A stretch of 32,000 nucleotides of DNA from Nonlabens ponticola (GCF_003966335.1 NZ_CP034549.1:1860001-1892000); one strand, 5' to 3'; shown: positions 16,701 through 32,000, numbered from the stretch's first letter. Numbers and translations: made by a program. The notes: generated by a model not told the origin, from the letters alone.

Positions 16701-18425
16701 ATAGTACGCACAGCACAGGATATATCACTGACAAATGAAGATGTGACCTTATTAGGCCTTGAGGTCTTAGGAGGTGAATTGAGCGTTAAGAACGACCACG
16801 GTTTAACAGTGACGCATCATTTAATCCTCAACGGGACTATCGATCTAGAAGGAGAATCACAACTCGTACAAACAACAAACAGTGATTTGATCGCCACAGC
16901 ATTAGGAAAGATTGAACGCGATCAACAAGGAACATCTGATGGATTTAATTACAATTTCTGGTCATCGCCAGTAAGTAAATCATCTACTGGAGCCAACTCT
17001 GGCTTTAGTCTGGAAGACGTGCTGAGAGACGGCACAGACGTCAATAATATAAAACCTCTTAACTACACCAATTCTAGTGTAAATAATGGAGCACCAGCGA
17101 CAGCGACCAGTGCTGCTACCATATCTGGTAGATGGTTGTACAAGTATAGCAACTTTGCGAGTGGTACGTATTCAAACTGGTTGTATATGCCACCATCCAT
17201 GGACAATCTTACTGGTGAAGGCTGGACCATGAAAGGTACCTTTGCTAGTGGTGGTGAACAAAACTACACTTTTGTTGGTACGCCTAATAATGGTGATATT
17301 ACTTTACCAATAAGCAATGGCAGTGATTACCTGATTGGTAATCCATATCCTAGTGCTATCGACGCGCACCAATTTTTACAGGATAATCCAGATCTAGATG
17401 GTACCGTTTATTTCTGGGAACATTGGGGTGGCAATAGCCACACACTCAAGGAATATCAAGGCGGTTATAGCACGTACAATCTTTCTGGTGGTGTAGGTAA
17501 CGCTACGCTAGGAACATCACATCCATTGGTAAATTCTGGTGGTGTGGCTGTTAAGGTGCCTAAGAGATATATTCCTGTAGCACAAGGTTTCTTTGTCACA
17601 GGAACAAGCGATGGCACCATCACCTTCAACAATTCACAGCGACAGTTTGAGACTGAAGGTTCAGGTAACAGCATATTTACCGCGGCTCCTGGTAGCGGTC
17701 AAGTTACCGCAAGTGAATATCACGATACTAGTGACTCACGTGCCAAAATACGTCTAGGTTTCAATTCACCTAACAAGATTCACCGTCAGCTGTTGCTCAC
17801 GGTAGATAGCAGTGCCACCGCAGGATATGATCGTGGTTATGATGGTCTTATGTATGGTGAGCAGTATGATGATATGTCATGGGTGGTAGAGAACGAGAAA
17901 TACGTCATTCAAGGAATAGATGATTTAAAGGACGATACCGTTTTACCTTTACAGATCAAGTTGCGCGACGCTGGTCCAATAAGCATTGTTATTGACGAGT
18001 TATCCAACTTCCCTGTCGATCAAGACATATATATTTATGATAATAAAACAGGAGTATATTCCAACCTGAGAGATGAGGAGTTTACGGTGGACTATCTGTA
18101 TGGTGGAAAACACACTGATCGTTTCTTCCTAGTCTTTGAAGAACAAAGCACATTAAGTAACGATGATGTAGATGATCTAACCGTAGGGTTACAAGTTTAT
18201 AAGCCGGCAAGTCAATCACATATTGTTGTAAAAAACAACACGGGCTTAGGTATCAATCAAGTGCGATTGACCAATATGTTGGGACAGCAGGTTGCCCAAT
18301 GGGAAGCTGATAATCAACAACTACAGCAACAGTTCAATTACAGCGGTTTGAGTACTGGTAATTATATTGTTAGCGTTGTGATGCAGGATGACAGCGTGAG
18401 CAGTCATAAAATTCGCATAGAGTAA
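13722..18425 (+). CDS. Giant secreted protein with a LamG/concanavalin-like domain and a T9SS C-terminal sorting domain
   Basis: ORF-track entry 13617..18425 begins at a TTG. The ATG at 13722 gives the signal peptide MSKSLLYYRFILLSSILLIGAISHAQ. LamG-like segment: GDFSISAWVY...AWTYVAFVYEGGEGRLYIDG...GRLEEIRMFD. The C-terminus NQVRLTNMLGQQV...GNYIVSVVMQDDSVSSHKIRIE resembles a Por_Secre_tail. Confidence 0.85.
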   Translation: MSKSLLYYRFILLSSILLIGAISHAQRVEIFNANFSDDVGDNAGWYQQSSYISGGYIVNKTNAWMRGADAAYPGAEGSFYHLRRDYNSNRTYRSYMSSYLYSPIINLTGKDKLSMSFEWWLDTYPGTGAEGFKIEYSIDGGTTWRVLGDHTDELAVNWYPSLANGVLDGYDEFGDPIEEGGWTTDTGAWVFSSIDLPAQAFNDNSQTQFRFYFESDGYLSNIAKGLAIDNFKIIGDDIKVKNYSDCGLGIGQNLELWLNGRTLASYSDGDKVDQWTNISSLDPAANISSEWTSATSKGAERPTYYDNPTDNVNFNPVVSFDGTNAMYGKSGFYSQDIYMVINPALGITASRPTEDVFHGDDYETDIGSQDVTGISINNTSARYGALPDIAAYNQGAQTSYGKAIIHPTLSYTRPVLFNARVKADGSGMDLYLDGIDLGVTLSASLSDEQNIETFKDILDSRYWLGRSEFWGTSFTGDIMEVMSFSERKSDADRARLESYLAVKFGITLGLFPVDEIALPHVPGAYFDSAGNALWNGALHPGFTYNVTGIGRDDCSLLHQKQAKSVDPNTFITVGLGDIAATNAQNTNAFQSDGDFLMWGSTPSTLVALPTPLVVNLGPSVVTTFTDVTERTWKFKEISLVGNDIPEVKLSVETSGLTSLPVITGNDAYVMIVADDAAFITNVETIFLKTVGDRQECNYDFDGEKYVKFGVAHEVITPRHVNFDGTNDYVAMDDELDMTGDFSISAWVYTTGSNSSNNSKTIVSKRAGVNEGYHFLIRDSNELQVNFRDGVSIRSNTRINNNAWTYVAFVYEGGEGRLYIDGILDTSKSMAAMVDNDNKFCIGARYISKNNLNNYFKGRLEEIRMFDTAITVDQLRFMMNQEILKDGTGIKGTIIPTSVTKNDLSGLQETNLAAYFNMNTYIGTHLNDASGNGHRGSLKSPENFEIQVQSAPLPYIAIGDGQWDDPSNWMNGTEGYFPGFTRVINGRTEKIDWNIVRTAQDISLTNEDVTLLGLEVLGGELSVKNDHGLTVTHHLILNGTIDLEGESQLVQTTNSDLIATALGKIERDQQGTSDGFNYNFWSSPVSKSSTGANSGFSLEDVLRDGTDVNNIKPLNYTNSSVNNGAPATATSAATISGRWLYKYSNFASGTYSNWLYMPPSMDNLTGEGWTMKGTFASGGEQNYTFVGTPNNGDITLPISNGSDYLIGNPYPSAIDAHQFLQDNPDLDGTVYFWEHWGGNSHTLKEYQGGYSTYNLSGGVGNATLGTSHPLVNSGGVAVKVPKRYIPVAQGFFVTGTSDGTITFNNSQRQFETEGSGNSIFTAAPGSGQVTASEYHDTSDSRAKIRLGFNSPNKIHRQLLLTVDSSATAGYDRGYDGLMYGEQYDDMSWVVENEKYVIQGIDDLKDDTVLPLQIKLRDAGPISIVIDELSNFPVDQDIYIYDNKTGVYSNLRDEEFTVDYLYGGKHTDRFFLVFEEQSTLSNDDVDDLTVGLQVYKPASQSHIVVKNNTGLGINQVRLTNMLGQQVAQWEADNQQLQQQFNYSGLSTGNYIVSVVMQDDSVSSHKIRIE

Positions 18426-18967: not shown

Positions 18968-20284
18968 TTAATCTTCTAATAAAGAGATGCGCAATTTACG
19001 TTTCTTGATGCGGCTATTATTGAGTTTGTCGATTAATTCAATGGTCTTTTCATGCGGCACAGCTACAAAAGCACATTCTTGCTTAAGCTCAATAACACCC
19101 AACTCGTTCTTCTCAAGGTTACCCTGCTTGAAGAATAGGCCAGCGATATCACCCTTAGAAATTTTATCGCGCCTACCACCAGAAATGTAGAGGGTTTCCC
19201 ATTGAGGATTTTGTGATGCAGACTCACGAAGATTCATCGATAGAGTAGTGGCGCCGTCAATAAAATCAGGTAGTTCTCTTTCTTTGTCCTTGAGTAAAAT
19301 TGCCGTTCCTGTAGTATTCATCCTGGCAGTGCGACCGTTTCTATGAATAAATTCATCTTTTCTAGCTGGCAACTGGTAATGAATGATAAAGTCAAGTGCA
19401 GGAACATCGATACCACGAGCCGCAAGGTCTGTGGCAAGCAAAATGGTGTGTGTACCGTTTCTAAATTTGATAAGCGCCCGCTCACGATCTTGTTGTTCAA
19501 GCCCACCATAAAAAACGGAATGCCTCAAATCATTATTCCATAAATGATCACTTACCTCGCCAATGGTATCCTTAAAATTGCAGAATATTATACCGCGCTT
19601 ATTGCCCAATAGCCCTAACAAATTAGTCAATGTCTTGAGTTTATCATCTTTATATTCAACGAACTTAAGTTGTATTTCTGGACGCTGTTGATCCAGGAAA
19701 TTAAGTCGGGTAGGTGAGTTCATTTTCATGAATTTGGGTATGCCTACCTTTTGCGTTGCGCTGGTCAATATTTTGTTGGTTAGCTGTGGTAATGATCCTA
19801 CTATTTGGGACATTTCTTGTTCAAAACCAGTTTCTAGTGATTTGTCAAATTCGTCGAGAACGAGAACGGATAATTTGCCGGTGTCAACCTGGTCACGTCT
19901 TAAATGATCTGCCACGCGACCTGGTGTACCTATGAGAATCGCTGGTGGCGTTGTGAGTAATATTTTATCACTTGAACCAGATCTACCACCATATACCGCG
20001 TTGACCTTATAACCACTACCCATTTCTCGCACCACTTGTTCTATCTGTATGGCGAGTTCTCTTGAAGGCACAAGTATCAAGGCTTGTACTAGTTCTACAT
20101 CAGGGTTCAATAGCTCTAATAGCGGTAGCAAAAAAGCGACTGTCTTTCCAGATCCTGTTGGTGAGAGCAGTACAACTTCATCGTTATTCAATATCGCTTG
20201 TTGGGTAGCGAGTTGCATCTGGTTGAGCTGCTCGATATTAAGTTTGGCTAGTAATTCTTTATTAGTCTTTAGAGAGTTGGTCAT
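18968..20284 (-). CDS. DEAD-box-type ATP-dependent RNA helicase with a DbpA-like C-terminal RNA-binding domain
   Basis: 438 aa. Motifs: I SPTGSGKT, Ia PSRELA, TPGR, II DEFD (a variant of DEAD), III SAT, VI HRNGRTAR. The C-terminus YISGGRRDKISKGDIAGLF...IGVIELKQECAFVAV resembles the DbpA domain. Confidence 0.88.
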   Translation of the reverse strand: MTNSLKTNKELLAKLNIEQLNQMQLATQQAILNNDEVVLLSPTGSGKTVAFLLPLLELLNPDVELVQALILVPSRELAIQIEQVVREMGSGYKVNAVYGGRSGSSDKILLTTPPAILIGTPGRVADHLRRDQVDTGKLSVLVLDEFDKSLETGFEQEMSQIVGSLPQLTNKILTSATQKVGIPKFMKMNSPTRLNFLDQQRPEIQLKFVEYKDDKLKTLTNLLGLLGNKRGIIFCNFKDTIGEVSDHLWNNDLRHSVFYGGLEQQDRERALIKFRNGTHTILLATDLAARGIDVPALDFIIHYQLPARKDEFIHRNGRTARMNTTGTAILLKDKERELPDFIDGATTLSMNLRESASQNPQWETLYISGGRRDKISKGDIAGLFFKQGNLEKNELGVIELKQECAFVAVPHEKTIELIDKLNNSRIKKRKLRISLLED

Positions 20285-20545: not shown

Positions 20546-21295
20546 ATGAAGTCATTATTAGAGATTCATCAAGATCTATTGCGCAATCAGCAGGCAATCG
20601 ATAAAGATGAAGTTGAGCAATTCCTGTCAAGGTTTGAGCAAAATGTAATGGCGACGGCACCGCGCAATTCCCTAAGCTATGCGCTGGATCTCAAAACAAT
20701 GAAATATGTTTACGTTAGTGCCAATTGTAGCATTTTTACTGGGAAAACGGTAGAGGATTTTAAGAATAAGGGAATGGACTTGCTGCTAGAGATCATGCAC
20801 AAAGCAGATTTTAAAGCGTTGTCGTATGATTTGTTTCCCGCAATGCAGGAAAAGTATCTAGAACTCTCACTTGAGGATCGCAAGAATACTGTTTTTGAAT
20901 TGTATTACCGGTTGATACACGCCGGTACTGGAATGGAAACGCCGGTTGTAGAATACAGCAGTTATGCCCGATATGATGATGAAGGATCGCCTACTTTTTC
21001 TACTGGTGTGATTTATGAATCACCCTTAGCAATGGATGGTGTGCGAGGTATTGTGCGCCATATTGATAGTGACGCTCAAACTACATTGTTTGATCGCTGC
21101 GATTTTCATGCGCTTGATGTACTTACCAAAACGGAGAAAGCCATTGTGCAATCCTTCATTAAAAATCAATCCAGAGATTGTATCGCTGCAGACTTGAATA
21201 TCTCTATCCACACGGTACGCACGCATTTTAAAAATATCTACAAGAAGCTCGATATCAATAAGGAAGCAGATTTACTGGGTGTGGTGAAAATCTAA
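20546..21295 (+). CDS. LuxR-family transcriptional regulator with an N-terminal PAS-like sensor region
   Basis: 249 aa. The C-terminal HTH is LTKTEKAIVQSFIKNQSRDCIAADLNISIHTVRTHFKNIYKKLDI (GerE/LuxR type). Confidence 0.85.
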   Translation: MKSLLEIHQDLLRNQQAIDKDEVEQFLSRFEQNVMATAPRNSLSYALDLKTMKYVYVSANCSIFTGKTVEDFKNKGMDLLLEIMHKADFKALSYDLFPAMQEKYLELSLEDRKNTVFELYYRLIHAGTGMETPVVEYSSYARYDDEGSPTFSTGVIYESPLAMDGVRGIVRHIDSDAQTTLFDRCDFHALDVLTKTEKAIVQSFIKNQSRDCIAADLNISIHTVRTHFKNIYKKLDINKEADLLGVVKI

Positions 21296-21354
21296 TAAGC
21301 TTTTATCATTTCAAGCAATATTGCCTTGATGTGATAAAGGATATTTTTAAATGA

Positions 21355-21488
21355 AGACAACGGTCTGAGATATAAGTAGTTGCGTGGGTTAGCGTTAAAC
21401 TTTGCAAGTACATGCCAAACTGAAAATCCGCTAGGATTTTCAGAAGTAGGCGAGAACAAGCAATTACTTATAGCTATTGTTGTAAAAC
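21355..21488 (-). repeat. attC-like imperfect palindrome, unit 1 (~134 bp), directly after the stop of the 287-aa ORF
   Basis: The minus strand reads TTTTACAAC-AATAGC-[TATAAGTAATTGC ... inner hairpin CTGAAAATCC-TAGC-GGATTTTCAG ... GCAACTACTTATA]-TCTCAGACC-GTTGTCT. The 13-bp outer stem pairs 21371..21383 with 21460..21472 and contains one G:T. It is homologous to unit 3 at 24009..24140. Confidence 0.6.
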
Positions 21489-21489
21489 G

Positions 21490-22353
21490 TTATTTGTCTT
21501 CTTTCGATTTAATTTCAAAGTATTTCTCTATGTAAAGTATGATGTCTCTTTTACGAGGTATAAAGTTACTTTGATTACTTACTTCTTCACTTATAATGTC
21601 TACAAATCCATTCTTGATGTCTTCATAGGTCAAATGACTATTCTTGTCTAAAAATTCATATACTAGTTTTCGAGTTCTCATTCTTCTCGTTAACGGACTT
21701 ATTTCTCTTTGAACAACTTCCTCGTTTATTCCGTTTTGTTCCAATCTCATCAACATTAATTCTTTAGATAAATTATCAAGCTTTGAAAGTATATATTTGC
21801 TTTCAGCAATTTCAGTCTGATTAATTTTTGCGGGAACTATAGTTTTACCGAAACTTTTTAAGAATGGCGAATAATTTGCTTCAGATTTTGCTTTATCATA
21901 AGTAGCATTAATCCTTTTTACCAATTCAGATTTGAATTCTACAATTTTATTAAATCTTAAAGATGATGGATAGTTTAAATGTTCAATAACTCCAGTATCA
22001 AATGAATACCCTGTCTTTTCGTCCTTTATAATAATTGTTGGCTTGTCAAATGCTAATCTCAATCCAAGTTCAAACATAACATTAGGATTTTTAGAACTAA
22101 CATCACAAATAACAATTTCATCATTATAAATATTATTTACTATTCTTTCGTGTATTAAACCAATAGCAACATCATCACTAACAAGTCTTGGCTCAAATTC
22201 TGTTTGTTTCACAGTATCAACTAAAATCGACAGAACCTCTTTCCAGTGTTCTTTAGAATATTCTGGATGTGAGGCAATGGGCATAATTATACCACATTTT
22301 TTTTGTTGCTTCTTAAGTACTTCTTTCTTTACTGCTTCTTTTTTCTCTGGCAT
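21490..22353 (-). CDS. Cassette ORF 1: nucleoside 2-deoxyribosyltransferase-like (Rossmann/SLOG-like) N-terminal domain plus a helical C-terminal domain
   Basis: 287 aa with AT-rich codon usage. CGIIMPIAS...IVICDVSSKNPNVMFELGLRLAFDKPTIIIKD resembles the D-x-(S/G)-x-x-N/D-x-G/V-x-x-E-x-G-x-A-x-x-x-x-KP-x-I signature of the deoxyribosyltransferase-like fold. The family call is unverified. Confidence 0.75.
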   Translation of the reverse strand: MPEKKEAVKKEVLKKQQKKCGIIMPIASHPEYSKEHWKEVLSILVDTVKQTEFEPRLVSDDVAIGLIHERIVNNIYNDEIVICDVSSKNPNVMFELGLRLAFDKPTIIIKDEKTGYSFDTGVIEHLNYPSSLRFNKIVEFKSELVKRINATYDKAKSEANYSPFLKSFGKTIVPAKINQTEIAESKYILSKLDNLSKELMLMRLEQNGINEEVVQREISPLTRRMRTRKLVYEFLDKNSHLTYEDIKNGFVDIISEEVSNQSNFIPRKRDIILYIEKYFEIKSKEDK

Positions 22354-22387
22354 TGGTTATTATGTTTTACGACGACAAAGGTATAAT

Positions 22388-22570
22388 GCGCCTCAGGCGT
22401 CCCAAACTTTTTATGGTCGTTTATATTGATATTGTTTTGTTGAATATAGCGATTACTTTGATTATATTGAGCCTTATGGGAAGTAGCTTGAATTCAAGAA
22501 ATGAAGAATGAGCGAGAGAAAGACATCAAGACGCGCATGAAGGCAACTGGCTCGAACGGTCTTATTTAAG
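22388..22570 (-). repeat. Conserved inter-cassette module, copy A (X-Y-Z parts), upstream of cassette ORF 1
   Basis: It aligns base for base with 23542..23683 (gcgcNtcaggcgtc...attatattgagcc...gaagaatgagcgagagRaa). Its right end, gagagaaagacatc...aggcaactggctcgaacggt, aligns with 23972..24018. Confidence 0.85.
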
Positions 22571-22658
22571 AAAAGTAGTGGATTAAACTCTTCCTAACCA
22601 TCAGTTTTAAAAAAGACCGCTAATTGGTTCCTATTGTTGCGATTGAGAGTTTAAACTG

Positions 22659-23501
22659 CTATTTCTTATAAATGGGTGTCCGTTTGGCTAAAAATGCTAA
22701 AGTTATTTTGTAGGCATCTTGGGTTTGCCAAAAAGACGCATGCTCTTTACTAAATAGATTGTCGCCTTTGTCATTATAAATATTCATAGTTATGTTGGTA
22801 GAAAAATTTTGAGTTGAAGAACTATACGTGCTGCTTGAACTAATCCTTTTATTATCATTCCAAATATCACCGATTATATGACCTTTTTTATCTACGTGCG
22901 CTGTAGTGGATTGAGATTTTGTCGCGGTATTACTATAATTGGTGACGGTAGATTTTTCAATAGAGACTAAACCTTGTACCAAATATTCCACACCTAGAAT
23001 ATTGCTTATTTCACCCATAGTATATCCTGCGAGATTATTGTTGTCTAGACCAGCTTTCGCTAATAAAGCATTCGTGGTGGTTGGATCTTGAAACTCAAGA
23101 TTCTGAGATTTCTTTTTAAAAATAGTATAGGTTTCCTGTTGGATTTTTCTGGTCATTAAAGCATTACTTGTTTCGAGATCTTTTATGTAACCAAAAGGTA
23201 GAATTGCGACCTTATTATGGTGATCTTCTAGGTTCAAATCTGAATTTTTAGTAGCATTATTATAAAATTCAACTCGTCCAGACGCAAAGGTAATTTTTGC
23301 TATATCAGATTTCTCCACAGTATATTCAATTGTTTCATTTTGATAGATAAATTGAAGGTCGGCTGAATTAATTTTAATGACTTTCCCTTTCATCTCATCG
23401 CCATTAACTTTTAAAATAACATCACTTTGAGCTGCAGCTAGGTGTATAAGTAATAGGCACAATGTAATTAGCGATACTTGTTTTGAACAAATTTTAGACA
23501 T
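22659..23501 (-). CDS. Cassette ORF 2: secreted hypothetical protein
   Basis: 280 aa. Signal peptide MSKICSKQVSLITLCLLLIHLAAAQS. Ser/Thr/Asn-rich C-terminal half. No confident family. Confidence 0.75.
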   Translation of the reverse strand: MSKICSKQVSLITLCLLLIHLAAAQSDVILKVNGDEMKGKVIKINSADLQFIYQNETIEYTVEKSDIAKITFASGRVEFYNNATKNSDLNLEDHHNKVAILPFGYIKDLETSNALMTRKIQQETYTIFKKKSQNLEFQDPTTTNALLAKAGLDNNNLAGYTMGEISNILGVEYLVQGLVSIEKSTVTNYSNTATKSQSTTAHVDKKGHIIGDIWNDNKRISSSSTYSSSTQNFSTNITMNIYNDKGDNLFSKEHASFWQTQDAYKITLAFLAKRTPIYKK

Positions 23502-23541
23502 AATATTTGGTATTAGTGATTTGTTATGTTGAAGATTAAAA

Positions 23542-23683
23542 GCGCGTCAGGCGTCTCAACCTTTGTATAGTCGGTTAGATTGATGTTGTTTTGGTATGTT
23601 GAAGATAGCGATTAGTTGGATTATATTGAGCCTAGCAGGAAGCCGCTAGCATCCGACGAGCGAAGAATGAGCGAGAGGAATGC
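23542..23683 (-). repeat. Conserved inter-cassette module, copy B (X and Y parts), upstream of cassette ORF 2
   Basis: See copy A. Similarity starts about 35-40 nt upstream of each ATG, at the GCGC(C/G)TCAGGCGTC hairpin. Confidence 0.85.
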
Positions 23684-23788
23684 ATTATCTTTCATTTATA
23701 CATTGTTCGCTCCAGTTGGTTGTGGCGACCTTGACCGTGCCAAGTATGCACTAGCTAACCTTAAGGCGTTTCACACCTTTGCCGACTT

Positions 23789-23983
23789 GTCTCCGACGAG
23801 CCGCTAGGCGAGAGGAAGACACACCAATTGAGTAGATCGGGAGTCTTGAAAATCAGATTTTATCTGACGCTCGCTTTGCTTTTGAATTGAGTAGTGTATA
23901 TCTGTTTCAGGTCCTTGCTTGCGGATCAAAATCTGATTTTCATATTGTCTCCGACGAGTGAGTTTGCGAACGAGAGGAAGACA
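23789..23983 (-). repeat. Two direct Y-part copies bracketing a 94-bp hairpin
   Basis: GTCTCCGACGAG...CGAGAGGAAGACA occurs at 23789..23821 and again at 23947..23983. Between them is a perfect 14-bp inverted repeat: GAAAATCAGATTTT (23848..23861) and AAAATCTGATTTTC (23928..23941). Confidence 0.8.
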
Positions 23984-24008
23984 TCTAGATACGTCCGCAG
24001 GCAATTGG

Positions 24009-24140
24009 CTCGAACGGTTATGTATAAATATAGTTGCGGGTTTGCGTGCGAAGAATTTCCGAAGGAAATTTAGATGTAGCAAATACGCAACTGCCTTTAT
24101 TTTAGCACTAAACCGCAATTATTTTTATACGGTGTTGTGC
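24009..24140 (-). repeat. attC-like imperfect palindrome, unit 3 (~132 bp), directly after the stop of the 129-aa ORF
   Basis: The minus strand reads GCACAAC-ACC-[GTATAAAAATAATTGCGGTTTAGTGC ... inner hairpin AATTTCC-TTC-GGAAATT ... GCACGCAAACCCGCAACTATATTTATAC]-ATAACC-GTTCGAG. The arms are at 24022..24049 and 24105..24130, with bulges. Confidence 0.6.
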
Positions 24141-24147
24141 ATAGTTT

Positions 24148-24537
24148 TTATTCACATACTTTATTTTTTTCAATCCACGGATTAATAAATTTCCTTTCAG
24201 TTCCGAGTATTGTTTTCATTTCGGGTTCGTCGAAAATTAGATAGAAATTTTTGTCTTTTTCCACGTATTTAAATTTCAATTCAGTACAATATTTTCCAGT
24301 GCCGTGATTTACGAGCATACTTATAATTCCATCTTCAATTTTTATGTCTTTCACGGATTCCACCATAATAAAATTAACTTTTATATCAGAAGGAATTTCT
24401 TTTTCACTATAATTTCCAAGGTCATTCATTTCAATCATTTCGTCAACGATTTCTTGAATCCATTTGTCAATAGATTTTTCTTGGTTGATTTGGATGTTTG
24501 AAATTCCAATCAAAAATGTCAGTAAAATTATTTTCAT
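24148..24537 (-). CDS. Cassette ORF 3: small secreted hypothetical protein
   Basis: 129 aa, very AT-rich, with the hydrophobic N-terminus MKIILLTFLIGISN. It is flanked by a perfect 10-bp inverted repeat (24134..24143 and 24554..24563). Confidence 0.65.
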   Translation of the reverse strand: MKIILLTFLIGISNIQINQEKSIDKWIQEIVDEMIEMNDLGNYSEKEIPSDIKVNFIMVESVKDIKIEDGIISMLVNHGTGKYCTELKFKYVEKDKNFYLIFDEPEMKTILGTERKFINPWIEKNKVCE

Positions 24538-24553
24538 ATTCTGTTTCTCAAAT

Positions 24554-24759
24554 TATGCACAACGGCCAGATATATGAACCGTAGCATCTAAAGATAGAGA
24601 AATCTTCGATTTTGCAGGCAGCCAATTTTATCAAATCTTGCGAACGACCTTTTATATATCGGTAGCCAAATTTGATAAAATTTGGCGGAAACCGGTTGAA
24701 ACAGAACCCAGCAATCCAATCCAAGCGATAGCTATGGTTTATATATGTTGTTGTGAAAC
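24554..24759 (-). repeat. Inter-cassette structured repeat, unit 4
   Basis: The ends are TATGCACAACGGCCAGATATATG ... TTTATATATGTTGTTGTGAAAC, inverted copies of each other. The internal hairpin pairs CCAATTTTATCAAAT (24622..24636) with ATTTGATAAAATTTGG (24670..24685). The stretch gcaggcagccaatt...gcgaacgacc is a diverged copy of the Z part aggcaaYtggctcgaacggt. Confidence 0.7.
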
Positions 24760-25067
24760 GTGGTAGAAGATTGATGCGAGCGCAGGCGATCACGTAAAAA
24801 TGGCGGCTCAAAACACCAGCTTTCAATGTTTGAAATACAACCGACCGATTTGCACGAACAGAACGTGCAAACGTATCAAGACGCAACCGCTTTAAAAACC
24901 CAAACCAAAGCTCTTTTGATTCCCAAACCGAACTGTCGCCATTTTTTCAAAACACAGAACTCGCTGGAATTTGAAGTCGAAGAGTAGATCAGTCAAGCCG
25001 ATGGAAGCGGAAACCTAAAGCCGTAAAACCAAGGTCGTCAAGCTCAACCACCATGTTTCACAACGGT

Positions 25068-25180
25068 TATATAAACAAACCTAAGCCAAATCTTACCACT
25101 TTACAATACTGATTATAGGGTATATACAAACCTTTTGAGGTGGTTGGGTAAATTTCCCAATTGGGTTGTATATGCAAACC
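25068..25180. repeat. Three direct repeats, TATAT(A/G)-CAAACCT, spaced about 50 bp apart at the dnaK-proximal end of the array
   Basis: tatataaacaaacct (25068..25082), tatatacaaacct (25121..25133) and tatatgcaaacct (25169..25181). The first abuts the GTTTCACAAC box at 25055..25064. Confidence 0.7.
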
Positions 25181-25260
25181 TTTACGATTTTAAACGTTTA
25201 ATGTACTTCAAGAGACTAACCAGCTCAATTGCAATAATAACAATCGCGTTTCAACTTTCG

Positions 25261-25283
25261 GGCCTGCCTGCCGCGGGCAGGCC
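25261..25283. repeat. GC-rich palindrome GGCCTGCC-TGCCGCG-GGCAGGCC
   Basis: An 8-bp perfect stem in an AT-rich spacer, with no adjacent U-tract. Function unknown. Confidence 0.6.
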
Positions 25284-25306
25284 AGCAAAACCCAAAAACA
25301 ACCAAC

Positions 25307-25340
25307 AAAAAAAGACCCTGAAATCAATCAGAGTCTTTTT
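25307..25340 (-). terminator. Rho-independent terminator downstream of dnaK
   Basis: The minus strand reads AGACTCTGA-TTGATT-TCAGGGTCT followed by TTTTTTTGTT. The hairpin sequence is related to the GACCCTGAA..TTCAGGGTC repeats upstream of dnaK. A second, weaker hairpin (AAATAAGC-GCA-GCTTATTT on the plus strand) lies at 25386..25404. Confidence 0.7.
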
Positions 25341-25444
25341 CATATTTACAGTTACCTATTAACTAATAACAGAAATCCAATAACTAAATAAGCGCAGCTT
25401 ATTTCACTTCTTCAAAGTCTATGCTTCGACAAGCTCAACACAGG

Positions 25445-27346
25445 CTACTTGACTTCTTCGAAATCTACGTCTTCAACATCGCTGGTGTCATCTGCACTCG
25501 TAGCATCAGCACCTGCATCTGCTCCGGGCGCGCCAGCCGCATCGGCCTGCGCTTTGTACATCTCTTCACTAGCTGCTGTCCAGACGGTATTAAGCTTCTC
25601 AAGAGCTGGATCGATCTTCTCGATCTCCTTAGTCTCATAAGCCGCTTTCAACTCGTCTAGAGCCTCAGTAATTGGCGCCTTCTTGTCGTCACTTAGCTTA
25701 TCGCCAAATTCTTCCAACTGCTTCTCAGTTTGGAAAATCATCTGGTCAGCTGCGTTCAGCTTATCTACTTTCTCTTTGGCTTTTGCATCAGCTTCAGCGT
25801 TTGCCTCAGCTTCCTGCTTCATCTTTTGGATTTCTTCTTCAGTCAATCCAGACGATGCCTCGATGCGTATGTCCTGCTTCTTATTAGTCGCTTTATCCTC
25901 GGCACTTACCTTGATGATACCATTGGCATCAATATCAAAGGTTACTTCAATCTGCGGTGTACCGCGACGTGCTGGTGGTATTCCATCTAGGTGAAATCTA
26001 CCTATCGTCTTATTATCGGTCGCCATAGAGCGCTCTCCTTGCAGTACATGGATCTCAACACTTGGCTGATTGTCTGCTGCTGTAGAGAACACCTGTGACT
26101 TCTTGGTTGGGATCGTGGTATTGGCCTCGATCAACTTAGTCATCACGCCACCCATGGTCTCGATACCTAGAGATAACGGAGTCACATCTAATAAAAGAAC
26201 ATCCTTAACATCACCAGTCAATACACCACCTTGGATCGCTGCACCTACGGCAACCACTTCGTCAGGATTCACACCTTTTGATGGCTTCTTGCCAAAGAAT
26301 TTCTCAACAGCTTCCTGCACGGCAGGAATACGAGTAGATCCACCAACTAGGATAATCTCATCGATATCGCCTGTTGATAGTCCAGCAGCTTTAAGCGCTG
26401 TTTGACATGGCTCGATAGTTCTTTTTACAAGGTCGCTGATCAATTGCTCAAACTTTGAACGAGTCAATGTTTTTACAAGGTGTTTAGGACCGCTGGCCGT
26501 TGCCGTTACATAAGGCAAGTTAATTTCAGTCTGTGCACTAGATGATAGCTCAATTTTGGCTTTCTCTGCCGCTTCTTTCAAACGCTGTAACGCCATGGCA
26601 TCTTTGCGTAAATCGATATCCTCATCTGCCTTAAACTCATCTGCTAGCCAGTTGATGATTTTCTCATCTACATCGTCACCACCTAGGTGCGTGTCACCAT
26701 CAGTTGATAGTACCTCAAATACACCATCACCCAATTCTAGGATAGATACATCGTGTGTACCACCACCAAAGTCAAATACCACAATCTTCTGGTCGGTATC
26801 CTTCTTGTCCATACCATAAGCAAGCGCTGCTGCAGTAGGCTCATTGATGATACGCTCTACTTTCAATCCAGCGATCTCACCAGCTTCTTTAGTCGCCTGG
26901 CGCTGGCTATCGTTAAAGTAGGCAGGTACCGTGATCACGGCGCCAGTTACTTCTTGACCTAGGTAATCCTCGGCCGTTTTCTTCATTTTTTGCAGGATCA
27001 TCGCACTCAATTCTTGCGGCGTGTACAAGCGACCGTCAATGTCCACACGTGGCGTGTCGTTATCACCTTTTACCACTTTGTACGGTACACGTTCTGCCTC
27101 CTTTTGAGACTCGCTGTACTTGTTACCCATAAAACGTTTGATCGAGTAGATCGTTTTCTCTGGGTTCGTTACCGCTTGACGCTTTGCAGGATCACCTACC
27201 TTGATCTCACCACCTTCTACAAAGGCAATGACAGATGGCGTCGTGCGCTTTCCTTCTGCATTAGGGATCACCGTAGGCTCGCTACCTTCCATTACAGATA
27301 CACAGCTGTTGGTCGTCCCTAAATCAATTCCTATGATTTTACTCAT
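25445..27346 (-). CDS. dnaK: Molecular chaperone DnaK (Hsp70)
   Basis: 633 aa. [21 protein letters not shown]-like ([12 protein letters not shown]), [11 protein letters not shown] and the remainder are canonical Hsp70. Confidence 0.97.
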
Positions 27347-27420
27347 TATATATACTTTTAGTTAAGATTCATTTTTAAACTCAACTCAAATAGTCAATGT
27401 TTGTGCCACCACAATCCCAG

Positions 27421-27454
27421 TGACAAGCTGTCAGAATCTTGCTCAAAATGACAG
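27421..27454. promoter_or_regulatory. TGACA/TGTCA half-site cluster 75-108 nt upstream of the dnaK ATG; possible operator
   Basis: TGACA-agc-TGTCA at 27421..27433, plus CTGTCA-N15-TGACAG at 27428..27454. No CIRCE element was seen. Confidence 0.25.
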
Positions 27455-27482
27455 TTTCATGCACAACGATGGTCACGATACC

Positions 27483-27496
27483 GCTTTCGCGAAAGC
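27483..27496. repeat. Intergenic copy of the GCTTTCGCGAAAGC palindrome
   Basis: Exact 14-mer upstream of dnaK. Confidence 0.95.
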
Positions 27497-27599
27497 AAAA
27501 TGCATAACAATTCACCAAAAGAAAAACAGTTCACAACCACCATAAATTATCCTGCAAGATGGCACTTGAACTCATGCACCAAGGTTTTCCATAGCACTT

Positions 27600-27967
27600 G
27601 TCATGCTGAATTTATTTCAGCATCTCACTAAAGTCAAAAACTTGCACAGACCCTGAAATCAATTCAGGGTGACAATAACAAAAACCTTGTCATGCTGAAC
27701 TGGTTTCAGCATCTAACTATATTTTGTAAACTCTAGGAAACCATTTCGAGCGACAGTCGAGAAAAGGTGGTTAGTCTATCCCAGCATCTCACCAACGTCA
27801 GAACCTAGCAAAGACCCTGAAATAAATTCAGGGTGACAATAACAAAAACCGTGTCATGCTGAACTAGTTTCAGCATCCTACAAGAGTCAAAACCTTGCAA
27901 AGACCATGAATCAAGTTCAGAGTGGCAATCGTAAGTTTCTCTGTCATGCTGAATTCATTTCAGCATC
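27600..27967. repeat. Array of alternating hairpin repeats (REP/MITE-like), left block
   Basis: Type 1, GTCATGCTGAA-N5-TTCAGCATC, is at 27600, 27689, 27853 and 27943. Type 2, GACCCTGAAAT-N-ATTCAGGGTGAC, is at 27649 and 27813, with a degenerate copy at 27901. The linkers between them are also conserved. Confidence 0.9.
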
Positions 27968-28037
27968 TCATAGCAGATCATAACTTCCTTAAAACTCAAT
28001 CCAATCATTTATCTTTAAATCAAACAAACCAAACCCA

Positions 28038-28343
28038 TTGCCACGCCGCCACTACCACAACTACACTGTATATATTCTCACAAACAAAAAGAATGGTGTT
28101 CTATACATAGGCGTCACAGGTGGCATCGATGATCGCATGGAACGACATCCTTCGGGAACTGGCTCAAAGTTCACGGCTAAGTAAAACACCAAAAGACTCG
28201 TTTATTTTGAAGAATTTCAATACATCAACGATGCGATCGCAAGAGAAAAACAGCTCAAAAACTGGCGCCGACAATGGAAGATCAATCTAATAGAAAAAGA
28301 AAATCCCGAATGGCTTGATCTGTATAAACCGCTGGATAAATAA
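28038..28343 (+). pseudogene. GIY-YIG nuclease family gene (UPF0213/YhbQ-like) with an in-frame stop and no ATG start
   Basis: Own translation in the frame of 28068: VYILTNKKNGVLYIGVTGGIDDRMERHPSGTGSKFTAK*NTKRLVYFEEFQYINDAIAREKQLKNWRRQWKINLIEKENPEWLDLYKPLDK*. The TAA at 28182..28184 sits where family members have Tyr. The only in-frame start candidate is the TTG at 28038. Confidence 0.75.
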
Positions 28344-28349
28344 ACTACC

Positions 28350-28643
28350 GTCATGCTGAACTAATTTCAGCATCTCACAAGAGTCAAAATCTAGCACAGG
28401 CCCTGAAATAAATTCAGGGTGACAATAACAAAAACCTTGTCATGCTGAACTGGTTTCAGCATCTCTCGTAAGTCAGACTCTAGCACAGACCCTGAACCAA
28501 GTTCAGGGTGACAATCGTGAGTTTCTCTGTCATGCTGAACTGGTTTCAGCACCTCAACAAAGCAAGAGCATTGCACAGACCCTGAAATCAATTCAGGGTG
28601 ACATTCAAAACCACCACTGTCATGCTGAACTGGTTTCAGCATC
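28350..28643. repeat. Array of alternating hairpin repeats, right block
   Basis: Type 1 copies are at 28350, 28439, 28529 and 28619. Type 2 copies are at 28399, 28488 and 28578. The composite unit repeats about every 90 bp. Confidence 0.9.
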
Positions 28644-28741
28644 TCACCAATGAATAATTGCACCATCAAAACCGTACACCTTTTGTTAAACCTTACGGCT
28701 CATTTCACGATAATTATATTTTTGCGCTATACATATGTTGC

Positions 28742-31700
28742 ATGAATCAGATTTACAAGATTGTCGCCACTTTACTACTGTTAATTATTCTCAGCGCCTG
28801 CGCAAGACGCGCCGTACAGATTTCAGGCGACCAAGTCAATATCCAGAACGAGAAGCCTTTCCAACGATTTTATCTTTTTGGAAATGTAGGTGTCAATGAC
28901 CCAGACTCGCCAGCAGCCTTTGACGCGATGTTGCAGCATATTAATGAAAATTCAAAAAAAGATGATTATCTATTATTACTAGGAGATAATGTCCTTGCTA
29001 ATTCTATCAGGAAAGATGATGAAGATAATAAGGATGCCAATCAATTTAAAAAGCAGCTAGAACAAATTGCCAAAATCGATATCAATACGCTCGTGCTACC
29101 AGGAGATCACGATTGGAATGACGAGGGCATGGACGGCCTCAAAAAGATAGAAGAGTTTACTGAGGAGTATCTGGATAACGACGAGGCTTTTCAACCAGAA
29201 AATGCCTGTCCATTAGAAGAATTAAACATAAGCGATCAAGTAGAAATGCTTATCGTGGATAGTCAATGGTATATTGAAGATTGGGATAAAAACCCCAACT
29301 TTAATGACGAGTGCGAGATCAACACAAGAGAAAAATTTATCAAAGTGTTGGCAGATGAATTGCGCAAGGCAAGACACAAAACAATTATACTCGCCATGCA
29401 TCATCCTTTATATACCAATGGTGTACATGGTGGTCAATTGGGTATGCGTATGGTTACCACACCCAAACAGGAGAATGCCTACATTCCTGGATTGGGTTTT
29501 GCCTATAGTTTTGTACGCTCTCAGGCTGGTCTATTTCCGCAGGATAGATACAATCCATTGATGAATGATTTGATGCGCGAGATTGAAACCGCTGGATCTG
29601 GTATCGATAGACTATTGGTAGTATCGTCTCATGAGGAAAGTCTACAATACATAGATCGCGATAATATTAAGCAAGTAGTTTCTGGAGCGACCGTTTCTCA
29701 AAACATTGTCTCTTTAGGTAAAAAGGGAAAGTTTGCGGCTGGAAAAATAGGTTTCAGTGAGGTGCGCGTGTTTGAGGATCAAAGTTCGCAAGTATTGTTC
29801 TACTTAGTTGATGAGCAAGGTAATCTTGAGCAAGTATATTCTAACAAGCTTTTTGACGAGAAAAAACCTTATGATATTGATGGGATCACCGTCACTAATA
29901 AGGATGCCATCGCTGCCAGTATTTACAGCAAAGAAGAAACTGAAATGTCTGCAAAAGATGAGGAGTTTTACGGCAAGCATTACCGGGAACTTTACGGCAT
30001 TGATGTCAAGGCACCAGTAGTAATGCTGGACACGCTATACGGTGGTTTGAGAGTTGAGCGGGCTGGTGGTGGTAATCAAACGCAAGGACTTAGACTAATA
30101 GGAAAAGGAGATCGCGAATACAACATGCGTGCACTTGAAAAGGATGCATTACAATTCTTAAAAAGCGCCGGTTTTAATGAGCTTGATGCCGAGAGATATT
30201 TTGGCGAGACGTTACCTCAAGAACTTATAAGGGATTTTTACACTTCAGCACATCCGTATGGCGCATTTGCAGTACCCAGATTAGCTGGCGCCATAAAACT
30301 TAATCATACACACCCTAAGTTATTCTGGATACCTAAGCAACCTGTTTTAGGTGATTTTAATGACATTCATGGTGATCGTTTATACATGATTGTGGAGAAA
30401 CCAGATGATTCTTTTGACTCGCCACACATGTTCGGTTACAACAAAGACGTGGAGAGCACAGACGACTTGTTTGCTAAAATCAGGGAAGACGAGAAATATA
30501 CGGTAGATGAGGAAATGTACATACGTGCTCGCGTATTTGACATGTTGCTAGGCGATTGGGATCGCCATGAGGATCAATGGCGCTGGGCAGAAATTAAAGA
30601 TAGTGAAGACTCAGAGAAAAGTCGCTTTGTCGCGGTGCCGCGAGATCGTGATCAGGTTTTTGCTAGGTTTGATGGTAAACTATTGGAGTTTTTAAACAGC
30701 ACCATTGGCGTGACTAAACAGTTCGGTAATTATGGACCTGACATTGAGCACATCAATGAATTCAGTCAGAGTGCTAAATATTTAGATCATGCCGTGCTAC
30801 AAAGAACCACTCGCGAGGACTGGCTTACCGCTGTAAACTATATACAGAAGAATATAGATGAGAACGTGGTAAAAATGGCCTTTAACGAGATGCCAAAAGA
30901 AGTTAAAGATGACTTATGGCAACAGACTCAAGAAGATTTACTTGCTAGAAAATCAAATTTGGAAAACATTGTCAATCGCTATTATGATAACTTCATATTG
31001 TTTCAAACCTTGAAAGGAACTGACAAGGATGATATATTCTTCATTGAGCGTCTCGATAAGGAAACCACAGTAAAAGCCTACCGCAATAAGGATGGAGAAG
31101 CGGCAGATGTACTTTTTGAAAGAAGTTTTAAGGATAATAAAACTGAAGAAATTTGGATTTACGGTCTTGACGATGACGATGAGTTTACCATAAGCGGTTC
31201 TGGTAATTCAAAAATTCAAATAGTAATCGTTGGAGGAAAAGGCGATGATAAATACACTATTGAGAATGGCAAGAATGTAAAGATCTATGATTTTGAAAGT
31301 GAGAAGAATGAGGTTGAAAAACGAAACGGTGCTAGTGTCGTACTGCGCGATGATTATGATATTAATCATTACAACCATAGAAAAGCACCAACTAGCAAAT
31401 TGGGTTTTGGTGCTCAGGTAACCTACAATCCTGATGACGGCGTGAGACCACAAATAAGCATTTCAAAATCAGTGTTGGGTTATGAACGCAATCCATACAG
31501 TTTAAAATATGGCATTGAGGCAGACTACAGATCCCTAACTCAAGCAGCCATTTTTCAAGGACATCTTGCCAAGGCAAATATTCTAGGTCACTGGAACCTG
31601 CGAGCAGATGCCTTGATCACGACAAACAATTATACCCAAAACTTCTTTGGTTACGGCAACAACACCACATTTGATGGCGACACAGATTTTGACGACAATC

Positions 31701-32000
31701 GCGTGCTAATGCAAAGACAAGAGGCGAGTCTTTCTATTTACAAGCATGGTGATTATGGTAGCGATTTCCAATTCGGTATCCAGTATAGAGGTATAGAGGT
31801 AGAACCTGATATCACCAGATCAGCATTAATTGATAACCAGCGAGATGATTATCTCGACTATACCTTTAAATATCTATTTGACAGCTACGACAACGAGCGT
31901 TTTAAGACTCGTGGTATGCATCTAGAAAACGTTTTGTCCTTTACAGACAATCTGGCAAATGGCGAGAATTTTTTGAGCATAGATCCATCACTAACCTTTT
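28742..32000 (+). CDS. Paralogue of the 416..4153 metallophosphoesterase / Omp85-like lipoprotein; the 3' end is cut by the window edge
   Basis: Own translation from the ATG at 28742: MNQIYKIVATLLLLIILSAC..., then GDNV, GDHDWN, AMHHPLYTNGVHGG, SSHEESLQY, FYTSAHPYGAF, DMLLGDWDRHEDQWRW, VPRDRDQVFARFDG, and so on. It is collinear with the first protein. The frame is open to 32000, so it is absent from the ORF track. Confidence 0.88.
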   Translation, partial: MNQIYKIVATLLLLIILSACARRAVQISGDQVNIQNEKPFQRFYLFGNVGVNDPDSPAAFDAMLQHINENSKKDDYLLLLGDNVLANSIRKDDEDNKDANQFKKQLEQIAKIDINTLVLPGDHDWNDEGMDGLKKIEEFTEEYLDNDEAFQPENACPLEELNISDQVEMLIVDSQWYIEDWDKNPNFNDECEINTREKFIKVLADELRKARHKTIILAMHHPLYTNGVHGGQLGMRMVTTPKQENAYIPGLGFAYSFVRSQAGLFPQDRYNPLMNDLMREIETAGSGIDRLLVVSSHEESLQYIDRDNIKQVVSGATVSQNIVSLGKKGKFAAGKIGFSEVRVFEDQSSQVLFYLVDEQGNLEQVYSNKLFDEKKPYDIDGITVTNKDAIAASIYSKEETEMSAKDEEFYGKHYRELYGIDVKAPVVMLDTLYGGLRVERAGGGNQTQGLRLIGKGDREYNMRALEKDALQFLKSAGFNELDAERYFGETLPQELIRDFYTSAHPYGAFAVPRLAGAIKLNHTHPKLFWIPKQPVLGDFNDIHGDRLYMIVEKPDDSFDSPHMFGYNKDVESTDDLFAKIREDEKYTVDEEMYIRARVFDMLLGDWDRHEDQWRWAEIKDSEDSEKSRFVAVPRDRDQVFARFDGKLLEFLNSTIGVTKQFGNYGPDIEHINEFSQSAKYLDHAVLQRTTREDWLTAVNYIQKNIDENVVKMAFNEMPKEVKDDLWQQTQEDLLARKSNLENIVNRYYDNFILFQTLKGTDKDDIFFIERLDKETTVKAYRNKDGEAADVLFERSFKDNKTEEIWIYGLDDDDEFTISGSGNSKIQIVIVGGKGDDKYTIENGKNVKIYDFESEKNEVEKRNGASVVLRDDYDINHYNHRKAPTSKLGFGAQVTYNPDDGVRPQISISKSVLGYERNPYSLKYGIEADYRSLTQAAIFQGHLAKANILGHWNLRADALITTNNYTQNFFGYGNNTTFDGDTDFDDNRVLMQRQEASLSIYKHGDYGSDFQFGIQYRGIEVEPDITRSALIDNQRDDYLDYTFKYLFDSYDNERFKTRGMHLENVLSFTDNLANGENFLSIDPSLTF

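Follow-up and report, generated by a model that had tools for sequence, protein, structure and literature searches.

The window analysed here, a stretch of 32,000 nt of the Nonlabens ponticola chromosome (NZ_CP034549.1:1860001-1892000), very probably holds on its minus strand, at 21351-25201, a chromosomal gene-cassette array of the integron type, whose own recombinase gene has been deleted to a short stub and whose cassettes would have moved by hairpin exchange. The array is composed of an attI-like site, the recombinase-gene stub, four attC-like hairpins of 137-206 nt, four cassettes and two copies of a leader of about 200 nt. The cassettes carry open reading frames (ORFs) of 129, 280 and 287 aa, and one cassette is devoid of an ORF. 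The attC-like sites share a common plan, in which R'' (NNNNNNNAAC) is followed by 3 nt, L'' (NNYTATAR...), a variable centre, L' (...YATANN), 5-6 nt (RARACC) and R' (GTTNNNNNNN). The features of the array are listed below in the direction of the ORFs.

25172-25201, plus strand: recombinase-gene stub, ATGCAAACCTTTACGATTTTAA..., reading MQTFTILNV*; only its first 23-25 nt or so are homologous to intact genes
25065-25181, minus strand: attI-like site with three direct repeats GGTTTGnnTATAnnACC at 25165-25181, 25118-25132 and 25065-25081
25055-25064, minus strand: R' box GTTGTGAAAC at the junction of attI and cassette 1, 10/10 complementary to the R'' of cassette 1 (24750-24759)
24563-25063, minus strand: cassette 1 with its attC-like site, bounds taken from the R'/R'' logic; cargo without an ORF of at least 60 aa
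24554-24759, minus strand: site a, 206 nt, with R'' GTTTCACAAC, L'' ATATATAAACCATAGC, L' GCTACGGTTCATATAT and R' GTTGTGCATA
24015-24562, minus strand: cassette 2 with its attC, carrying the 129-aa ORF (24148-24537) with a hydrophobic N-terminus
24006-24143, minus strand: site b, 138 nt, with R' GTTCGAGCCA; fold z = -3.5, supported by motif scan and covariance model
23502-24014, minus strand: leader X', upstream of the 280-aa ORF and about 280 nt longer than leader X
22659-23501, minus strand: 280-aa cassette ORF with a secreted or lipoprotein-like signal at the N-terminus (by eye)
22548-22684, minus strand: site c, 137 nt, decayed; R'' triplet ACC instead of AAC; overlaps the stop codon of the 280-aa ORF
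22354-22556, minus strand: leader X, upstream of the 287-aa ORF
21490-22353, minus strand: 287-aa cassette ORF with weak TIR-like similarity
21351-21488, minus strand: site d, 138 nt, at the end of the array, with R'' GTTTTACAAC and R' GTTGTCTTCA

Complementarity of the cassette ends

The box that ends a cassette is complementary to the box at the start of the same cassette, which is the R' of the upstream site and not the R' closing the cassette's own hairpin. Such a match of R'' with the R' at its own start is the signature of a crossover at the G|TT of a circular cassette's site. In cassette 2, R' GTTGTGCATA and R'' TATGCACAAC match at 10/10 positions, and own-end pairing is perfect in two of the four window cassettes. 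An earlier note on this DNA, made from the sequence alone, had described segments bounded by short inverted repeats, whose outer halves differ among segments yet complement each other within one. All seven boxes reported there were recovered with their positions and sequences, and the covariation is borne out. The note had explained it either by a shared origin of both ends in a single recombination site, comparable to the R'/R'' boxes in a circularised integron cassette, or by a need of the ends to base-pair. Both ideas agree with the results, as the own-end complementarity is that of a G|TT crossover and the boxes form the outer stems of attC-like hairpins. The boxes do lie at the segment junctions, but they are not the bounds by themselves, each segment having a hairpin site of 137-206 nt.

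Pairing was counted over ten arrays, with boundaries set by attI or by covariance-model matches (see below) and not by complementarity. At least six of the seven variable positions were complementary at 16 of 27 consecutive (self) boundaries, compared with 14 of 702 non-self combinations, so that the boxes pair far better within segments than between them. Most of the self boundaries that are not complementary have an undetected leader-type element in between, or coordinates that are 1-3 bases off. In the window, 24134-24143/24554-24563 and 24750-24759/25055-25064 are the sole perfect GTTG-anchored inverted pairs at a distance of 100-1500 nt. Perfect pairs anchored on GTT number 3, against a mean of 1.04 in shuffles, which is weak evidence if counted alone. 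The two perfect pairs gain their significance from context, because both lie inside the 4-kb array, with each box directly at the foot of a long hairpin site. The first pair of the earlier note, 21479-21488/22364-22373, is one of nine pairs with one mismatch in the window and involves a decayed site; this 9/10 pair is at chance level by itself but is backed by homology, as described below for leader X.

Folding and covariation of the attC-like sites

As single-stranded DNA, good folds are obtained for sites a, b and d (z of -2.7 to -5.5). The bottom strand of site d reaches -23.8 kcal/mol (z = -5.5), and that of site a (z = -2.7) is 7.3 kcal/mol more stable than the top strand. A motif-plus-pairing scan of both window strands detected sites a, b and d only (5 overlapping matches), compared with 0.1 matches in shuffles. 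The same scan yielded one match in twelve unrelated control loci (about 200 kb in total) and up to 6 matches per locus, on the cassette strand, in the recombinase loci described below, with none in two short loci.

The alignment comprised fifteen 138-nt-class sites of five organisms, and pairing was scored over the proposed 16-bp L stem and the AAC/GTT triplet. Paired cells amounted to 87%, compared with 26-31% when the partners were slid. Compensatory changes on both sides occurred in 12 of the 16 L-stem pairs, and the covariation score was reached by none of 500 shuffles. The AAC and GTT triplets are invariant in 15/15 sites. Column pair 25/117 is A.C in all fifteen and pair 20/123 in ten, and A.C on the ORF strand corresponds to a G.T wobble on the complementary strand. 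Pairing in the L stem reaches 97.5% on the bottom strand, compared with 84.6% for the top strand. The bottom strand is the more stable one in 16 of 18 sites, with a mean difference of 2.7 kcal/mol. This fixed A.C/G.T asymmetry argues for a folded single strand, and the probable substrate is the strand opposite to the ORFs, as in classical integrons.

A covariance model was built from the fifteen-site alignment and run unfiltered on the window. It matched two training sites, site c and part of site a (23 bits); no other window match reached E <0.1 except weak opposite-strand echoes of two training sites. Site c, which is not in the training set, scored 33.3 bits (E 5.5e-7), and its arms L'' (22646-22673) and L' (22564-22591) are 75% complementary. 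On 98 other loci, the model gave 40 matches at E <=0.01, including sites of the TARA contig L032 outside the training set, and the matches extend to sites beside recombinases just 35-48% identical to P0200, the recombinase of N. ponticola. The window sites also have counterparts of the same type elsewhere: site b at L013:21746-21884 in N. tegetincola, site c at L017:9224-9362 in Aequorivita nionensis, and site d, judged by eye, in L020, L022, L024 and L032. The earlier note had taken GTTGCGATTG (22636-22645) for a left boundary box without a partner. This box was misassigned; it sits inside the site of the 280-aa cassette (22548-22684) and is probably not a boundary box. Its use as the R'' of that cassette was also considered and dropped, since the fold is weak and both the model match and the site-type homology favour 22548-22684.

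It is very improbable that all this comes from fortuitous matches or from hairpins of a common intergenic kind, such as terminators, repetitive extragenic palindromes (REP) or the ends of MITEs (miniature inverted-repeat transposable elements), without relation to recombination. Shuffled sequence does yield roughly one perfect 10-nt inverted pair per 32 kb, the 9/10 pair does not exceed background, and the window has another repeat-rich intergenic region at 27347-28650. However, the sites are 137-206 nt long and lack a T-run, and their conservation across genera comes with compensatory changes. They are confined to arrays beside one recombinase family, where the homology of strains stops at GTT. 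A MITE or insertion sequence would show the same terminal inverted repeat everywhere, a target duplication and a transposase. The inverted repeats here are cassette-specific and not copies of one terminal repeat, no transposase was found in the 32-kb window, and no target duplications were seen by eye.

The attI-like site and the junctions in relatives

The last GGTTTGnnTATAnnACC repeat of the attI-like site abuts the crossover, and the first overlaps the start codon of the stub. The window attI can be aligned with those of L031 and L032, the closest metagenomic relatives of the N. ponticola recombinase, from the recombinase start codon to ..AACC|GTTG, after which the sequences diverge. The stub aligns with the starts of the recombinase genes of these two loci (MQTFGDF.. 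and MQTFYDF..). It amounts to about the first eight codons with a frameshift and is followed by unrelated sequence and then by the dnaK terminator. Gene annotation and tblastn with P0200 revealed no recombinase gene and no remnant other than the stub in the 32-kb window, which is free of integrases for 21 kb on one side of the array and 7 kb on the other. An attI beside the integrase gene, where cassettes insert, is thus present, though the gene in the window is a stub. The window array was thus once a complete platform that lost its integrase gene by deletion, a cluster of attC sites lacking integrases (CALIN) with its attI kept.

Complete versions were found in relatives. The loci around a near-identical DnaK in N. 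tegetincola encode a tyrosine recombinase of 274-275 aa, whose gene lies some 5.5 kb beyond dnaK and is oriented divergently to a row of small ORFs; this array is a different one in each of the four strains. There, an AT-rich attI with TATATACC-type repeats is followed by cassettes (by eye and by script), the boxes at a cassette's own ends are complementary over 9-10 nt, for example GTTACCCAAC / GTTGGGTAAC and GTTGCCATTA / TAATGGCAAC, and the hairpin sites have the anatomy of those in the window. The four strains are collinear with about 98% identity over 18.3 kb, and the homology ends at 18314-18320, at the G of the attI GTT. Two contigs of A. nionensis (L017 and L018) with an identical recombinase likewise diverge at the attI GTT. 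The motifs in relatives do mark insertion boundaries, which the earlier note had suggested checking.

Arrays of the same type adjoin homologous recombinases on the metagenome contigs L020/L021, on L022 and in an Allomuricauda metagenome-assembled genome (MAG; L024/L025); the L022 array begins with a HigB/helix-turn-helix (HTH) toxin-antitoxin pair. Site types are common to several genera, with different ORFs. The intact recombinases beside these arrays have 267-283 aa. In nine of the ten distinct recombinase loci inspected, the recombinase lies within about 100-150 nt of the first crossover; in the tenth, L033, no GTT junction was identifiable. In L032, an attC-like site (87.6 bits) with a start resembling that of leader X was observed at 1020-1261, about 115 nt past the 3' end of the recombinase gene and on the opposite strand, which places cassettes on both sides of the recombinase.

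The recombinase family

The N. ponticola recombinase P0200 is encoded on the same chromosome as the array, has 267 aa, and is 51% identical to the N. tegetincola enzyme, 64% to that of L031 and 67% to that of L032. It could act in trans on the window array. The candidate active-site residues R124, K149, H213, R216, H239 and Y248, assigned from invariant columns, are unchanged in 37 family members. The best family profile is the archaeal XerA/'integron integrase' NF040815, with 188-193 bits against a cut-off of 220. The IntI profiles TIGR02249 (168-179 bits, cut-off 265) and PRK15417 (105-107 bits, cut-off 435) each match in two stretches and below their cut-offs, and the XerC/XerD equivalogs score 160-182 bits, about half of their cut-offs of 330-335.

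Alignment to VchIntIA (2A3V) falls into two pieces, between which IntI4 residues 189-244 are passed over, facing 11 residues of the query. XerA, in turn, is the closest solved sequence match and aligns end to end with 179.6 bits. The AlphaFold model, with a predicted local distance difference test score (pLDDT) of 82, has a loop and no helix at the position of the IntI-specific additional domain (I2), and its best structural matches are XerA and VchIntIA with similar E-values. The recombinase is a tyrosine recombinase of simple, two-domain build, and I2, the IntI-specific insertion, is absent from it and from the associated family.

Recombinases only 35-48% identical to P0200 were also observed in L034, L035, L058, L062 and L094, with attI/attC-like sites downstream on the same strand. 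The arrays of these loci show perfect own-end boxes and L boxes without the TATA motif. The recombinase family appears to be broader than Flavobacteriaceae and to include an 'inverted' gene arrangement.

A different account would make the array the decayed product of a canonical integron or CALIN with a normal I2-bearing IntI, the small recombinase being a bystander or a housekeeping Xer at dif. Single-recombinase Xer systems such as XerS and XerH do have their genes next to dif sites. Integrons or parts of them have been reported in Bacteroidota (PMC8618304, PMC9024848), and CALINs are common. However, this account is improbable, because the small recombinase lies beside the first crossover in nine of ten loci, the strain breakpoints fall at the attI of this very recombinase, and the loci with inspected gene tables showed no gene of the IntI type. 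A housekeeping Xer at dif was judged unlikely on three grounds: the XerC/XerD scores are below the cut-offs, the right half of the site changes with each cassette, and the two or more platforms of N. ponticola, one of which is decayed, do not suit a unique dif. Moreover, Bacteroidetes have ordinary predicted dif sites (PMC3025954).

Cassettes and leaders

Both leaders start exactly at R' GTTCGAGCCA. They are homologous (score 126, compared with 18.6 in shuffles), and the extra part of leader X' contains three hairpin units TGTCTTCCTCTCG..CTCGTCGGAGACA. The 3' end of leader X reads L' (TTATAC), a spacer (CTTTGTC) and a degenerate R' GTCGTAAAAC (22364-22373). In L032, a similar leader before a different ORF ends in '...TTATACCTTTGCCATTGTAAAAC' and the R'' of that cassette is GTTTTACAAC; leader X ends in ...TTATACCTTTGTCGTCGTAAAAC and the R'' of the following cassette is likewise GTTTTACAAC. 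The GTT of this R' remnant is mutated to GTC in the window and to ATT in L032. The shared arrangement makes the 9/10 pair a conserved L'-spacer-R' remnant with a mutated GTT, and leader X is read as an ORF-less cassette fused to the cassette downstream. Leader X was also tried as a short attC and rejected, with no fold above shuffles and no covariance-model match. Two of the four window cassettes look immobilised, with an R'' of ACC in one and an R' of GTC in the other, both fused to leader X. The stretch TTTG-N19-TACCTTTG in leader X (TTTG-N19-TAnnTTTG; about 22377-22410) was picked by eye as a candidate match to the Bacteroidetes promoter consensus.

A hairpin unit TGYMTTCCTCTC..N..CTCGTCGGAKRCA was observed on the minus strand at 23983-23945, 23821-23787, 23684-23647 and 22525-22490, in the leaders of two cassettes. 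The unit TGYMTTCCTCTC..CTCGTCGGAKRCA is also central in some N. tegetincola attC-like sites (L013:20251-20386 and L014:21105-21240).

Separately, a conserved ORF-less element of about 270 nt was observed in N. tegetincola and also in a separate MAG, both directly after attI and as further copies along the arrays. It begins with a 77-nt hairpin GTTGCTGGAC...GTCCAGCAAC and is a possible regulatory or promoter cassette that goes with the platform. No homology was detected between leader X and this N. tegetincola element, whose copies are:

L015:18317-18590, 19993-20260 and 20871-21140: ORF-less element of about 270 nt
L016:18317-18590 and 21020-21290: the same element
L022, about 1650-1945, minus strand: the same element

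Among the cargo proteins, the 280-aa protein matched no Pfam family. The 287-aa protein has a weak match to a PADLOC TIR effector (E 8.6e-6) and belongs to a large family that is widespread in Bacteroidota and labelled 'RNA helicase' by NCBI; it is possibly a defence gene product. At one locus checked for this family, L029:5161-6164 of Chryseobacterium joostei, GTTGTACGA and TCGTACAAC exactly border an ORF of 318 aa that belongs to a run of small same-strand ORFs after groEL. This locus may be another, unrelated cassette array with a site type missed by the motif scan.

Proposed mechanism

We propose that each cassette was formerly a circle with one attC-like site, in the order R''(..AAC), 3 nt, L'' ... 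L', 5-6 nt (RARACC) and R'(GTT..). The strand complementary to the ORFs would form the hairpin, and a tyrosine recombinase would swap one strand between the hairpin and the attI site at G|TT, leaving the product to be resolved by replication. The enzyme would be a compact Xer/XerA-like recombinase of 267-283 aa without the IntI-specific insertion. The crossover would split R', and its last nine bases would go to the cassette start, still complementary to the cassette's own R''; such splitting would produce the within-segment covariation seen in the earlier note. The junction of an excised circle would restore R' as G + TTNNNNNNN. The anatomy, the covariation, the strand asymmetry, the junction breakpoints of relatives and the lack of the insertion are observed; the acting enzyme, the exchange of a single strand and any current activity are what we infer from them.

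The same array might instead be served by double-stranded recombination, as in Xer/dif or pdif, the hairpin and the complementarity being by-products of half-site symmetry. The enzyme leaves room for this, as it is no closer to one of XerA, XerD and IntI than to the others and is devoid of the single-strand-specific I2, and so do the sites, in which a conserved TATA-containing arm and a GTT arm surround a 5-6-nt spacer. We regard it as unlikely, however, for the bases beside AAC/GTT vary among cassettes yet are complementary within one, which fits pairing and not half-site recognition. The stem covaries over 16 bp, far past the footprint of a protein half-site, and the invariant asymmetry with one strand almost fully paired makes no obvious sense in duplex DNA. 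In addition, the crossover spacers of attI (AAACTA, ATAATA) and attC (GAGACC, AAAACC) differ, so exchange of two strands should leave mismatches, and the sites are all direct instead of alternating as in pdif modules.

Several points weigh against the single-strand cassette array that we prefer. Leader X shows no hairpin folding beyond shuffles (z about 0), and the leaders are left unexplained by the array model. Two of the four window cassettes lack own-end complementarity to the preceding model-defined boundary. Homologues of the 287-aa protein elsewhere are not cassette-borne in the loci checked (L026-L030). The link between P0200 and the array rests on the homology of its attI with those of relatives whose enzymes are 64-67% identical. 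Finally, I2 has been described as necessary for cassette capture and as conferring single-strand recombination (PMC7790495).

Genomic setting

The array is flanked by a LuxR-type gene on one side and by dnaK on the other.

20546-21295: PAS/LuxR regulator, neighbour of the array
25445-27346, minus strand: DnaK, neighbour of the array; 100% identical to the DnaK recorded for N. ponticola

The G+C content of 21300-25400 is low (30-38%), and every ORF there lies on the minus strand. The rest of the window is ordinary Flavobacteriaceae chromosome, encoding ParA, ParB, DapB, a DbpA helicase and a protein that ends in a sorting tail for type IX secretion. An Rfam search of the window gave no match at gathering or permissive thresholds, Rfam having no attC family, and a search for tRNA and tmRNA found none. 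A contig scan with the LuxR/PAS neighbour gave only distant HTH matches. The non-coding 1.3 kb upstream of dnaK (27347-28650) holds at least 7 copies of a unit of about 89 nt, each composed of two short hairpins, GTCATGCTGAAnnnnTTTCAGCATC and GACCCTGAAATnAATTCAGGGTGAC, and resembles a REP-type repeat family. On the plus strand at 28658-32000, a reading frame stays open for more than 1,114 aa and leaves the window at its right end.

Significance and comparison with known systems

Somewhat tentatively, at a little short of an even chance, we propose that Flavobacteriaceae and distant metagenome lineages share a widespread and undescribed integron lineage with a minimal, I2-less Xer/XerA-like integrase, in which two conserved G.T wobbles choose the strand, in place of extrahelical bases that I2 reads. 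The logic at issue comprises attI, a hairpin attC, the G|TT crossover and strand asymmetry. I2 is regarded as the innovation that enabled single-strand recombination of attC. If the proposal is true, the family would either fill a gap in integron evolution, as the intermediate without I2, or represent a separate origin of the same cassette logic. Cassette-based gene capture would then extend to a major marine phylum, detection keyed to the IntI insertion would overlook such systems, and both the requirement for I2 and strand selection without it would be open to a tractable experimental test. The window array, as a decayed copy, is chiefly of value as a pointer to the family.

No evolutionary intermediates of I2 are known (PMC7790495). 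An earlier IntegronFinder survey found nothing but In0 elements in Bacteroidetes, and a later one adds one complete integron, in Salinibacter ruber, with no other Bacteroidetes integron mentioned (PMC9024848). Reviews place Bacteroidota among the integron-bearing phyla without detail (PMC8618304, PMC9668308). A full-text literature search found no description of Flavobacteriaceae cassette arrays with an I2-less recombinase, which is not proof of novelty.

Among systems with a precedent for the proposed mechanism is the CTX phage, whose folded single-strand attP is recombined at dif by XerC, an Xer enzyme without I2 (PMC7790495). Like such integrative mobile elements exploiting Xer (IMEX), the arrays would use an I2-less Xer-like enzyme on a folded single strand, with one strand exchanged and replication resolving the product. 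In contrast, the target here is a dedicated attI by the recombinase gene and not dif, and the products are tandem single-gene cassettes and not one phage. The pdif sites of Acinetobacter plasmids are 28-bp duplex sites that flank modules in alternating inverted orientation. These systems resemble the arrays in having discrete gene modules bounded by short Xer-type sites, whereas the sites here are all direct, long and hairpin-forming, with a cassette-specific outer stem.

Canonical attC sites have R boxes of the form RYYYAAC/GTTRRRY and extrahelical bases in the L box. Here, the R boxes depart from this consensus, reading GCACAAC, GGGTAAC, TGGCAAC and others, and the spacers are 3 nt versus 5-6 nt. 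The L box has a conserved YTATAR motif, most sites span 137-206 nt, and two fixed G.T/A.C positions with an occasional 1-nt bulge stand in place of the extrahelical bases. The recombinase, with 267-283 aa and no I2, is below the IntI family cut-offs. By its integrase, its R-box consensus and its extrahelical bases, the system is outside the integrons as currently defined.

The resemblance to integrons is extensive nonetheless. The recombinase gene is divergent from attI (co-directional in distant relatives), and same-orientation cassettes follow. Each cassette ends in an imperfect R''-L''...L'-R' palindrome with conserved AAC/GTT that folds as a hairpin, as in attC; the crossover is at G|TT, with R'' matching the R' at the cassette's own start, and the better-folding strand is opposite to the ORFs. 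Site families are common to different cassettes and hosts, the cargo includes toxin-antitoxin and defence-like genes, and strains show rapid turnover. CALINs have been interpreted as decayed integrons (PMC9024848). With four sites in 4 kb (21351-24759) and no integrase gene, the window array has the two or more attC sites of a CALIN, albeit of a non-canonical type, and in contrast to a CALIN it keeps a recognisable attI and the first integrase codons. The architecture and the logic are those of the integron, and the copy in the window fits the CALIN definition.

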